From Sphyrna mokarran (lineage: Eukaryota), in assembly GCA_024679065.1 (NCBI GenBank), contig JAGIQG010000019.1, positions 42,098,001-42,162,000 of the forward strand: a stretch of DNA of 64,000 nucleotides. Direction: 5' to 3'. Position 1 is the first letter of the stretch. The number at the start of each line of letters is the position of its first letter. Made by a program: the position numbers and the translations under genes. A model generated the notes under the pieces. That model saw nothing but the letters and a program-made list of their open reading frames with translations. It had not been told where the DNA came from and did no database searches. This document shows positions 14,934-61,590 of this stretch, piece after piece.

Positions 14934-15374
14934 CAAAGAACAAAGAACAAAACAGAATGGGAAACAGGCCCTTCGGTCCAACGAGCCCGCGCCGCCACCT
15001 CGATGTTCCCACTTCTACACGTGATCCCTGTCCATGTTTATAGATCTATGGATTAAAAACTAAATTTGAGACAATTTAGGGAGAATTTGTTTTGCCAATT
15101 AGCCTAAGAGCACATTTTTGGGATTTGGGAGGAAACCGGAGCTCCCAGAGAAAAACCACACAAGCACAGGGAGAATGCGCAAACTCCCACAGACACAGGC
15201 CCAAATCCATGTATCTGCCCAGCACAGCGAGAGTCACTGAGCTGTCGTGTTGCCCATCAAATGGTCCAGGTCAAGCATACACTAACGATGTGAAGCAGTA
15301 GGATACTCTCGAAAAAGGTCCAAGAGCGGTCCTCTCACGACCCATCGCGTGTATGCCCCTCGTTAGACAACAAG
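14934..15374 (-). mobile_element. Composite SINE-like element with structured 5' head, copy 1
   Basis: ttctttg tail, V-core, B-box-less tRNA remnant and ~115-nt hairpin head; collinear with 33014-33445 and 47109-47601. Confidence 0.85.
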
Positions 15375-33013: not shown

Positions 33014-33445
33014 ACAAAGAACAACACAGCACAGGAAACAGGCCCTTTGGCTCAACAAGCCCACGCTGTCATTTTAATATTCCCATTTCCACCCATGACC
33101 CTTATCTATGTTTATGGAAATCTGCATTGGAACTGAATTGGGGAGACAATTTAGGGACAATTTGTTTCGCAATCAGCATAAGAGCACATCTGTGGGATGT
33201 GGGAGGAAACTGGAGCACCTGGAGAAAATCCACGCAAGCATGGGAGATTGTGAAAACTCCCACAAATACCGGCCCAAATCCCTGTATCTGCACAGCAACA
33301 GTGATAGTCACTGAGCTGTCATGTTGCCCATCATCTGGTCCAGTTTAAGTGTACACTTATGATGTGAAGCAATAGGCTACACTCAAAATCCAAGAACAGC
33401 CCTCTAATGACCCATCGCGTGTATGCCCCTTGTTGAAGAACAAGG
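33014..33445 (-). mobile_element. Composite SINE-like element with structured 5' head, copy 2
   Basis: Collinear with 14934-15374; possible TSD tattgg at 33008-33013 and 33448-33453. Confidence 0.85.
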
Positions 33446-36400
33446 CATATTGGTCTAGTTTCAAAACATCATGAATAATGTCACTGGTCCATTGAACACA
33501 TTCTTTCAGTGGGTTCACCTGTTTTCATTCCTGTTTTTATGGCTGTGTAGTGTCCATGTCACTGAAAATCTTAGCTACAACATCACCCAAGCCAAATTGA
33601 AGGAAAAAGTCTACTGAACAAGATGAAGGAAAAGAGAACTTTTTATCTAAACTTCACCTCATAATTTCAGAATATCACAAAATGAACTGTAGCCAATTGA
33701 AATGCAATCAGTGTAGTATTGCAAGAAAGTGTGTGCTGGAAGTCCCAGAAATGGTGTAATGATAGGCCAGGACAATACTCTGCTCCTGTACAAATTGCAT
33801 CAATGAATGTTTTACACTGACCAAATGGAGTAGATGTGGCTTTGGCATATCATTTAGAAGATAATATAGTGTGAACCTAGAATGTATTCAATTTTTGAGC
33901 AGAGGGCTTGGATTCATGAGCTTCTGAGTCACGGTGTGCATGCTATCACTGTGCCAAGACTGAGAGCTGGGAGAGAAAGTGGTAGGGAATTTGAATTCTT
34001 ATTTAGTGCAACAGTGGTGAACCAAGAGATGTTACCATAAATGGAAGTGAAAATGTGATTCAATGTACTGAAAACAAAAAAATCTGACTTGGTGCATAGT
34101 TTGTTGGTGGAAGCCTGAGAGCCAGTTAGTTCTCAGTTCTGCTTTGGATTGGAAGTTGCTGTGATCACTTTGAGATGGGCTCATTGGGAAGAAGTAGTTC
34201 CACAATAGTTATAGGTTGATATAGTTGAACAGGGTAAAAAAAAATGGAAGGTTGTGTGATGAGTGGCATATTCTGTGTTCTGCTGTTCTAAGCACACAAC
34301 TTGTTCTGGTTGTAAAGAAATATATTTGCTTTTAAGCTGCAACTTGGGATTTTTATGCATGTGATCTAGATTGCTTTTTATGCTGATGCTGAAATCTGAT
34401 GTCATTGCTGGCTTGGCTAGTATTTAGTATTAGGTAATTTTGATATCAAACTAGACAGATAAGCAGTCATTAAGTTCATGAATTTATAAATTCATGTTGC
34501 AGGTGTATAAATATATCAGCTGATAAAGAGGCTCATTTTTACAAGACATTAAAACGTGCATTAAACCTGCCAAATATGAGGTTTAAAACAGATCTTAGTA
34601 AAAATGGTTAGTTAATTATAAAAAGCTTATTTGCATGGTTTGATTATATGAATGTGCATCAATATTTTGTATGAATCGTTTTGGTATTTTTTGTTATCAC
34701 ATTGAAAGATATTATACCTTTGAGGAAGTAAAGGTCAAACATTTTAGCCCATCTGTAATACCTGCAGTACAAATTGATTCTGGCCTTTTGAGTCTCTGCT
34801 TAAAATTACACTTTAAATTGTAGAATATTGGCTGATGAGCAGTGAGCAGCAGCAGTTTAACTGATCCACTTGCCAGTCATTAATTTCTGATACTTGTAGT
34901 AGCAATTATACACTGGCATTGGAGCTGTCATTGTTAGCAGTAATGTTGGAATGTTCTTGTCTGCATTGTAGCCAATAAATAACTCAAATTTAACTGTGCT
35001 GTAAATTTTCTTTTTAATCATAGTGATACCTTCAGTTTAGTAGTAGTGTTTCCATTGGTTTAATCTGTTGCACCGTACAGTTTAGAAAAGGAGCCTTGGA
35101 GTGGGTAATGGGTCCTGCATGATTGTTGGGTAGTATGGTTGTGGCACTATGCAGTACTCTGAAAATCAGTAAGTCACTAAAAATAACTTGGTGTACACAT
35201 CTGATTTAAATGCCCAAAATATTATAGGCAGCAGAGATGCACTTGTTCATCTGACTAGTATTTTGCTGGTAATTTATACTTAACAGAAATAGGTTAAAGG
35301 ATCTAAGATACTCTTATTCCTTGCAGTGGTTGAATTGAATGTTGCTTTCTGTCTTGGTTTGTTCTGATCATTTCAGGTTGTTCAAAATTGTGGTATTTTT
35401 GATCTGCAATTGAAATCCTAATCACGGATGTACTATTTAAGAATTGCTTATTCCCACCACTGTAACATTAGACAGTTCTGCTCTCTCGCCTCATCCACTG
35501 AATCTTTCATTTCTCATTTGACTATTCCAGTGGCCAGATTTCATAAGCTTGAAGTCATCCAAAACTGTACTTGCCTTAATTGGCACCAAGCATGATCACC
35601 CATTACTCCATTGGTTGCTGACTGATTTGGGTTCTCAATTAAGCAATACTGCTTTCAAGCTTTGTCCATTTTCCAAATTCCTCTAGTGTTGAATGCTATT
35701 TCCCCCACCCCCAAATCTTACTGTTGCTTAAAATCAAAATGACAAGACAATGGAAGAATGGTAGTACCCTGGGGATAAGATCAAATCCTGGCTAGTATTG
35801 GAAGCTGAGTTGTCAATTTTATGGCCCACTGTAACCACAATCTCTGGATTGATTGCACTGTCAGTAAACACTGCCTTTGGAAGTTGCAGGATGTGTTTTG
35901 CTTAACTTTCATTATCTTAATCCCTGATCTAATTTGAACAGGGAATGACAACTAAAACTATCTTTCAAACTGTTTTAAAACTGTATGCTTGGCTACTGAA
36001 GATGCTGCTCTATGGAAATAGCAAAAAATCAGTATGTAAATAACTTGTATTCTTTTGTGGTGCTACTGCCAAAATAGTTGCTGCTTTGCATCCCTTAAAC
36101 ATTTTCCCAATCAAAGCACTTCAATAAACTTGCACCCATTAGTTTTTTGCTTTTGTAATCGTAAATATCGTCCTGAGGGTTTTGAAATGAACTCCTGTTG
36201 AATAGCTTTCCAAGCAAATAATTTTGCAAAAAAATCTTTTATGGGATAAAGACAGATTGGCATCTAAACTGATGATTATTAGTGTTACTTTATGGTTTAT
36301 TTTGCAAGTAAAACCAAGCTTCTCCATTTTCTTGGAGGGGTTTCTTTTAAAAATTACAGGAAACAGTGGTTGTGTGTTTGTTTTGCAACCACTTAACCTA

Positions 36401-47108: not shown

Positions 47109-47601
47109 ACAAAGAACAACACAGCACGGGAAACAGGCCCTTCGGCCCAACGAGCCTGTGCCGCCATCCTAACGTCTTAATGACACAGAGACCAACATAG
47201 GGACAATTTGTTACCCAATCAGCCTAAGAGCACATTTTTGGGATGTGGGAGGAAACCAGAGCACCCGGAGAAAACCCACGCAACCACGGGGAGAACGCGC
47301 AAACTCCTGCAGACACAGGCCCAAATCCATGTGTCTGCACAGCAACAGCGATAGTCTGAGCTGTCATGTTGCCCATCTGATGGTCCAGTTTAAGCATACA
47401 CTAACGACATGAAGCTCTAGGCCACTCCTGAAGTAACATCCAGGAGTAGCCCTCGCACGACCTGCCGAATGCATGCACCTTGTTGGTCAACAAGGTGGAC
47501 CGGATTAAAGTATTTAAACAGTCCTGCTATATCCCTCTATCTGCAGACCGCTCATGTGGCTGTCCAAGAGACCCTTAAACAACCCTAGCGTGCCTGCTCC
47601 C
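47109..47601 (-). mobile_element. Composite element copy 3, extended 5' by CR1-ORF2-end-like sequence
   Basis: Same body and head. 47498-47601 reads on minus gcaggcacgctagggttgtttaagggtctcttggacagccacatg...atagagggatat (AGTLGLFKGLLDSHM...IEGY). Confidence 0.8.
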
Positions 47602-60559: not shown

Positions 60560-61590
60560 ATCATTGGGATATGGGGAAACATATTGGTTGGTGTATATCA
60601 AGCACAAAGGAAGATAACTGGTTGTTGGAGGCCAAACATCTTTGTTCCAGGCCATTGTTGCAGGTGTTCCTCAGGTTATTATCTTAGGTCCAACCATTTT
60701 TAGCTGTTTCATCAATTACTTTCCCTCTATTACAAGATCAGAAATGGTAAAGTTTGTGGATGATTGCACAAAGTTAGCACTATTCGTAATTCCAGATGCA
60801 GCCATGGAATTACAAATAGTGCTAACTTTGTGCAATCATCCACAAACTTTACCATTTCTGATCTTGTAATAGAGGGAAAGTAATTGAAGTTTGTGGATGA
60901 TTGCACAAAGTTAGCACTATTTGTAATTCCATGGCTGCATCTGGAATTACGAATAGTGCTAACTTTGTGCAATCATCCACAAACTTTACCATTTCTGATC
61001 TTGTAATAGAGGGAAAGTAATTGAAACAGCTAAAAATGGTTGGACCTAAGATTATAACCCTAATATAAATAACCCCAGCCGTATAAATACTGTAGTTACA
61101 AGAGCATGTCAGAGGCTGGGAATTCTGCAGAGAGTAACCTGATTCAAAATCTGGCCAGCATCTACAAGATAGATACAAGTCAGGTATATGATGGAACACT
61201 TTCCATTTGCCTGGCTGAGTGCAACAATCCTCAAAGCTTGACACCATCCAGGACAAAGCATCCACTACCTTCAACCTCAACTCCCTCCAGCACTAACATT
61301 TCTGGGAACAGTGTACTATTCACACAATGCACTGCAACAACTCACCAAGGTTCCTTCAACATGGAAATACCACCACCAGCAAGTTCCCCTCCAAGCCACA
61401 CACATCCTGACTCAGAACTATATCACCTTTTCTTCACTGTCACTGGGTCAGAATCCTGGAACATGGCACTGTTGGAGTACTCACAAGATGGAATTGTGGC
61501 AGTTCAAGAAGGTGGCTTACTGCTACTTTTTAAAGGGCAATTAGTAATGGGCAACAAATGCTGGTCTCATAGGAAGGCTCATATTCCACA
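60560..61590 (+). mobile_element. CR1-clade LINE fragment containing a fold-back rearrangement
   Basis: GVPQ..LGPTIFSCFIN...FVDDCT in ORF 60642-60869; resumes about 61075 (INTVVTRACQRLGILQRVT); tail aagggcaattagtaatgggcaacaaatgctgg. Confidence 0.82.
60674..61059. repeat. Nested near-perfect palindrome (double hairpin)
   Basis: 82-bp arms 60712-60793/60806-60887 with 1 mismatch; 60887-61052 is the reverse complement of about 60681-60849. Confidence 0.97.

Follow-up and report, generated by a model that had tools for sequence, protein, structure and literature searches.

Probable capture and trimming of an R2 3'UTR by a CR1-type LINE of Sphyrna mokarran

Several described systems come close to the elements treated here. 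In sharks, the SINE HE1 pairs with the LINE HER1 (PMC3747384), and V-SINEs are known from cnidarians to fish (PMC4824008). A promoter-dead V-SINE has also spread inside another transposon, the MITE MER6 (PMC6887750), and the conservation of SINE 'highly conserved domains' such as V is regarded as an open question (PMC6887750, PMC5786205). Lineage-A R2 elements, e.g., R2Tg (9dou) and the shark R2s in Table S2 of PMC13188248, encode three N-terminal zinc fingers, a reverse transcriptase (RT), a CCHC motif, and a restriction-like endonuclease (RLE). Strict site specificity has been lost in the non-specific R2NS elements of planarian and liver fluke (PMC5035012), and R2 parts are fused to the 3' end of another clade in R2 SIDEs and in R2/R1 hybrid SIDEs, the hybrids being non-autonomous and carrying the R2 5' ribozyme (PMC3414825).

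This study concerns three repeats in a 64,000-nt stretch of Sphyrna mokarran DNA (the window). With a probability of about 0.78, they are 5'-truncated copies of a CR1-type LINE that has captured and trimmed an R2 3'UTR, in which a folded arm is likely a cis-acting mRNA element. The LINE resembles CR1-clade elements of the shark HER1 type in its endonuclease-RT ORF, a short-repeat tail common to neighbouring repeats, and heavy 5' truncation; unlike these, its 3'UTR has grown from ~50 nt (locus L153) to 400-750 nt via an R2-derived insert under selection. The donor has the lineage-A protein domains, a 28S-derived leader, an HDV-type 5' core, a TAGCC-type 3' junction, and a 3'-terminal motif in common with a Fundulus R2 UTR, but differs in being mostly dispersed outside rDNA and in its long 3'UTR with a V-SINE, of which the window copies hold only part. 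Like R2NS it has lost strict site specificity; unlike R2NS, this vertebrate lineage-A family retains a weak preference for TAG(C), along with some insertions at 28S. A related 1.5-kb non-coding element is SIDE-like, whereas the R2 3'UTR of the chimera lies within a coding CR1. MER6 is a DNA element, whereas V resides here in LINE RNAs and is under measurable purifying selection in three vehicles. Each part is of a known kind, and neither the nested, coding, selected chimera nor the dispersed vertebrate R2 was found in the literature: a search that had Repbase and Dfam outside its reach returned no R2-derived CR1 3'UTR, no V-SINE in an R2 UTR, and no dispersed vertebrate R2.

The window copies and their LINE

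The three window repeats are 5'-truncated copies of an abundant CR1-type LINE. All lie on the minus strand, and their order of parts is that given by the first-pass annotation, i.e., a structured segment, a tRNA-like remnant without the B-box region, a V core, and a CR1-type tail. Copy 1 (14934-15374, subfamily A) has its 5' cut within the three-way junction of the R2-derived arm (15263-15374), of which the hairpin P2 (15359-15374), the long arm, and the 3' strand of the closing helix (15263-15268) are present. It continues with a tRNA-derived SINE remnant lacking the T-arm/B-box region (15197-15255), the V core (15105-15196), and the CR1-type tail with its short terminal repeats (14934-14996). 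Copy 2 (33014-33446, subfamily C) is an older, eroded, truncated copy with arm (33337-33446), tRNA remnant (33270-33329), V core (33179-33269), and tail (33014-33070). Copy 3 (47109-47601, subfamily B) is young and longer than first annotated, as it includes the last codons of the RT ORF (47514-47601, ending in ...GAGTLGLFKGLLDSHMSGLQIEGYSRTV, stop at 47514-47516). It holds the complete three-way junction (47382-47501; closing helix 47496-47501 with 47382-47387, hairpin 47479-47494, and long arm), followed at 47225-47374 by the tRNA remnant (47317-47374) and the V core (47225-47316); a private 16-nt deletion below the ORF stop has removed its pyrimidine-AG motif. In the tRNA remnant (about 47317-47345 and homologues), a short helix GCAGACAC/GTGTCTGC closes the remnant after the T-arm deletion, with a T-A for C-G double change in subfamily C.

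More than 20 free tRNA/V-type SINE copies, along with CR1-type tails, occur on both strands between 301 and 63946. The free SINE is taken by us to be shark HE1, and the names HE1 and V are used for the copies in that sense. At 60712-61024, the window also contains a 138-nt inverted repeat, nearly perfect and with an 83-nt repeat inside it, which gives chance miRNA matches in Rfam and may be a recent fold-back or MITE-like insertion.

The best genome-wide matches of each window copy extend upstream into the RT ORF. Long copies have open frames of 770 and 840 codons with a Pfam RVT_1 match (E 3e-34) and a partial piece of an endonuclease (Exo_endo_phos_2, E 4e-5, below the curated cut-off). An APE-type endonuclease and RT are combined in one ORF without an RLE, as in the CR1 clade, a label that we presume from C-terminal and tail motifs matching CR1 rather than from a tree with references. 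ORF1 and the 5' end were not recovered among 10 extended loci, the longest of which stop within the endonuclease region. Exact matches genome-wide number 33,749 for a 19-mer of the tRNA remnant and 8,567 for a variant differing in one letter, giving at least 42,000 motif matches for the LINE. Some chimeric copies are duplicated inverted or in tandem (L003, L055, L179, L189-L192).

The first-pass annotation had read the repeats as a composite SINE in which a structured head with a defined 5' end replaces the Pol III promoter. The 5' ends were sampled in 89 anchored copies on contig C1 (92 rows less one duplicate and two rows from another sample; listed matches taken in contig order, some tandem duplicates left in). 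They lie from 1 to >1,800 nt above the tRNA-remnant anchor (median 581): only 3/89 start at the hairpin, 110-135 nt above it, and 67/89 extend at least 260 nt, i.e., into the RT ORF. For subfamily A genome-wide, with start patterns that each detect about 1 in 8, 39 starts fall in 4 positions at the hairpin versus 26 in 5 positions 13 nt higher. This is an excess of about twofold (roughly 300 copies) and reflects at most a mild reverse-transcription stall. The segment is an internal, R2-inherited domain of a LINE 3'UTR, and the copies are continuous with an RT ORF, so the non-coding unit, its defined 5' end, and its role in place of a promoter do not hold.

The donor R2 and its probable route into CR1

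A rare older variant of the segment led to 30 diverged loci, 21 of them sorted by a motif as F1 and F2 and the other 9 forming group G. The majority sequence above the arm in F1/F2 is a different ORF that ends in CCHC and RLE motifs and matches R2Tg (phmmer E 3e-215) far better than L1 and other RTs (1e-29). A protein search gave 661 candidates, with 150 matches listed and 20 loci fetched. Nine of the 20 have frames >1,300 codons, three N-terminal zinc fingers (CCHH, CCHC, and CCHH in the 1355-aa frame of L300), a 28S-derived leader, and an HDV-type core, leader and core motif being found together in 8/9; from the core motif, an HDV-like 5' ribozyme is predicted. Their 3'UTRs of 834-880 nt (one 1,163) hold the arm, a tRNA-like part, and the V core, and the old F1/F2 and young Y/Z subfamilies carry the same arm below the R2 ORF. 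Copy 1 aligns with full-length R2 over 15086-15370 (314 columns, 70% identity, E 3e-25). A CR1 tail is present in a single F1 copy, L280.

The donor is a dispersed, young lineage-A R2 with intact ORFs. Its 3' junctions are mostly TAG(C)-like, and 1/30 coding copies abuts 28S sequence. One 3'-end pattern has 269 matches genome-wide, and among the first 100, ~70 (counted by eye) are followed by TAG and 3 by 28S, so exclusive insertion at the 28S site was not found in these samples. The assembly, in which rDNA may be collapsed or under-represented, contains 5 such 28S junctions. Loci L300-L308 (e.g., L300:858-4922) are young dispersed copies with frames of ~1,355 codons, weak TAG(C) preference, and few insertions at 28S.

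Many of the 269 R2-type 3' ends are supplied by a ~1.5-kb non-coding, R2-dependent element (L320-L322, L325-L344). It consists of the 28S leader, the HDV-type core, ~900 nt of unassigned sequence with internal repeats, and the R2 3'UTR. The tRNA remnant and V core are retained, and the arm is reduced to a stub in 23/23 sampled copies. The arm is thus present in both coding vehicles and absent from the non-coding one, i.e., it tracks with protein coding, a contrast that depends on a single loss.

Over ~190 nt, the SINE embedded in the R2 3'UTR runs colinear with its free counterpart. R2 F1 agrees with the majority sequence of 11 free window copies at 52/73 positions of the tRNA part (71%) and 71/84 of the V core (85%). 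The Pol III boxes are not intact: in R2 and G the B box carries mutations, and in A-E it has been deleted.

The nine G loci preserve an intermediate, in which the CR1 stop codon is followed by ~35 R2 codons, then by the R2 UTR through to its final base, and then by the CR1 tail. All four marks of this arrangement occur in 2/9 single copies and at least three in 6/9, and G is 85-90% identical to R2 F1 over the main blocks (~640 nt). L153 represents the empty CR1 site, with differences of a few bases at the junction. In a tree of the shared UTR, the CR1 subfamilies G, A, C, B, D, and E are nested within the R2 subfamilies (bootstrap 100), consistent with ORF2 distances. Through deletions, the pyrimidine-AG motif and arm, which start 178 nt below the stop in G, lie only 81 nt below it in A and C and about 20 nt in B, D, and E; what the younger CR1s keep of the insert is its pyrimidine tract, the arm, the tRNA remnant, and the V core. 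Three B-lineage loci with a longer stop-to-AG spacer (L350, L113, L172) are an intermediate of stepwise trimming.

From these surviving intermediates we infer the order of events. First, an HE1-like tRNA/V-SINE would have landed immediately below the arm in a lineage-A R2 3'UTR, and its promoter boxes were lost. This R2 family, using dispersed TAGC-like sites, would then have inserted a 5'-truncated copy just behind the stop codon of a CR1, in its short 3'UTR. The recipient would have turned into a master element, moved by its own ORF2 and tail. In its descendants, deletions would have removed three parts (the R2 codons, the end bound by the R2 protein, and the T-arm of the tRNA), so that pyrimidine tract and arm, once ~180 nt below the stop, came to lie ~20 nt below it, with arm, tRNA remnant, and V core retained throughout. 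Because V-SINEs range from cnidarians to fish, transfer from SINE to R2 and on to CR1 is the simplest direction.

Constraint on the arm and V core, and competing readings

The arm is a predicted three-way junction formed by a closing helix (GGTCCA/TGGACC), the hairpin P2, and a long interrupted arm. The majority sequences of 12/12 subfamilies fold at z -3.2 to -6.6. Much of the first-pass description of this segment stands. Outer and inner stems of copies 1 and 3 are as written, including the T-A to C-G double change, and the hairpin loops read GTCT, CTTC, and GACC; all three differ, but they represent two subfamily variants and private decay in copy 2, whose relatives have GTCC. The claim that the segment folds holds for copies 1 (z -3.3) and 3 (z -5.3), which beat their shuffles, but not for copy 2 (z +0.06). 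The closing helix had been overlooked, its 5' strand being cut off in copies 1 and 2, and the 5' hairpin then stressed is the one part lost by the young subfamilies D2 and E. The first-pass annotation had not recognised the segment as a tRNA, 5S, 7SL, or snRNA; no Rfam family matched it either across the window at the gathering threshold or within a 351-nt stretch at E<=10, and scans of the window, copy 3 alone, and four R2/CR1 loci returned chance hairpins and 28S flank only. A coding role for the arm was rejected, as stop positions vary among subfamilies.

The arm aligned across 27 chosen genomic copies pairs in 91.5% of cells (slid controls 36-45%), and 12/45 pairs have changed on both sides. 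The covariation suggested earlier is supported by the covariation score and the double-change cells, which exceed all 500 shuffles, but not by the number of double-change pairs (151/500); related rows inflate the figures of this alignment. In contrasts that are extant pairwise rather than branch by branch, with repairs scored as failures, 17/31 changed pairs remain paired over five independent comparisons (null 0.37, P 0.035). Deeper CR1 contrasts keep 7/11 (A-B) and 7/10 (G-B), with two and three double changes, respectively, and B-D1 adds one. Paired sites change more slowly than unpaired ones between G and A (7/86 vs 9/33, P 0.013). On the presumption that UTR and ORF2 share common descent, the arm (22/119 in A-B) is also slower than fourfold ORF2 sites (18/53) in A-B, A-C, and B-C (P 0.03, 0.01, and 0.006). 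These comparisons suggest a moderately constrained arm, and the first-pass proposal that the source elements were selected for RNA structure gains support once many subfamilies are compared.

Constraint on the V core is strong. V is slower than fourfold sites in every tested pair (A-B 4/97, i.e., 4% vs 34% at silent sites; R2 Y-F1 5/86 vs 26/81) and 3-8 times slower than silent sites overall. It is also slower than the post-V stretch before the tail (14/57), a difference that speaks against a mere exchange of 3' ends.

The closest competing reading accepts the same anatomy and holds that the arm was selected in R2 and is a passenger in CR1, slowly decaying beside the V core as the true target of selection. 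The V core is indeed the slowest part in all cases, CR1 sister contrasts show no surplus of kept pairs (5/14, null 0.37, P 0.65), and the arm-less non-coding R2 derivative thrives. On the D/E branch, moreover, the arm evolves at a silent-like rate (24/109 vs 13/72, P 0.58), with 33-36/43 reference pairs kept and P2 lost, stepwise in D2/E. Against a passenger stand the slower rate of the arm relative to silent sites, the G-A paired-site difference, and the double changes within CR1 given above. Furthermore, the arm was spared though deletions took sequence on either side, and subfamily E regained pairs after losing P2 (z -5.9). A passenger arm is considered somewhat less likely than a functional one and is the most serious competitor.

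Rous sarcoma virus RNA contains a stability element, linked to protection by PTBP1, that is pyrimidine-rich and structured and lies close behind the stop codon in a message with a long 3'UTR. It provides a working analogy for the arm by position and composition, and arm activity is putative. In the reading preferred here, arm and V fragment are likely conserved because they help the element mRNA survive or be translated. That the arm itself is an mRNA stability or translation element is proposed by analogy with stop-proximal protection elements, more tentatively and at somewhat less than even odds. Arm and pyrimidine tract would act on the translated RNA, by protecting long-3'UTR messages from decay or by enhancing translation from the 3' side, while the V core would serve a step common to all vehicles. 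For movement the CR1 would rely on its own ORF2 and tail, with the insert travelling as cargo in the RNA.

The pyrimidine tract could instead belong to a working 3' splice acceptor (YAG|G), with the arm regulating splicing or terminal-exon definition. In 12/12 subfamilies YAG|G persists despite sequence turnover, preceded by 20 nt that are 60-80% pyrimidine, and a donor-like CAG|GTGAGA overlaps the R2 stop codon (e.g., L300 near 4920), 160-210 nt above the acceptor-like motif. The donor-like site is lost, however, in the CR1 subfamilies; the intervening segment is missing in 0/37 R2 copies with both sites, and the 26 CR1 copies cut at the AG have no common upstream exon. Reinserted spliced RNA was likewise rejected, as no spliced copy occurs among these 37 and 26 copies. 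Parts of the stretch are contained in 19/21 public sequencing runs listed, none with half of it. Contigs of four runs cover the arm with many variant letters, which indicates related sequence in other samples and not expression, strand, or splicing; they show no joints or piled ends, although contigs are poor at showing either. Overall, the acceptor reading is improbable.

It is very improbable that the R2 protein binds the arm and that the chimeric CR1 thereby exploits the machinery of R2. The arm does originate in an R2 3'UTR, home of protein-binding structures, but according to PMC12222951 the last 65-67 nt suffice in R2Tg. The R2 end is found ~600 nt downstream of the arm and has been mutated in G and lost in A-E; an R2-dependent non-coding element lacks the arm, and chimeric copies terminate in the CR1 tail. 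Least probable of all is the first-pass reading, in which a composite SINE would carry a new structured head whose defined 5' end reflects a promoter or self-cleavage. Although copies 1 and 2 begin within 2 nt and hairpin starts are in mild excess, the sampled 5' ends and the upstream continuation of copy 3 oppose it, Rfam gave no ribozyme match, and cleavage at the hairpin would separate the ORFs from the tail.

Significance for element evolution

In a wider reading that is possible though held at less than even odds, V and the R2-derived three-way junction may be portable cis-acting RNA modules that boost the fitness of their carriers. V would have passed from SINE to R2 to CR1 and to the non-coding R2 derivative, maintained by purifying selection without a Pol III promoter, and the capture would have driven the expansion of the CR1 to >42,000 copies. 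The donor would be a vertebrate lineage-A R2 that escaped from rDNA and is still active genome-wide. As a young, intact R2 with relaxed targeting, it offers a natural contrast to avian R2 proteins for site-specific gene insertion. Since V resides here in the RNA of an autonomous LINE, from which it can be deleted in a single cis retrotransposition construct, the conservation of V becomes directly testable. A successful coding LINE that arose by insertion of one clade's element into the 3'UTR of another's would provide an unusually complete record of module capture, with empty site, intermediate, and trimmed descendants all still present.
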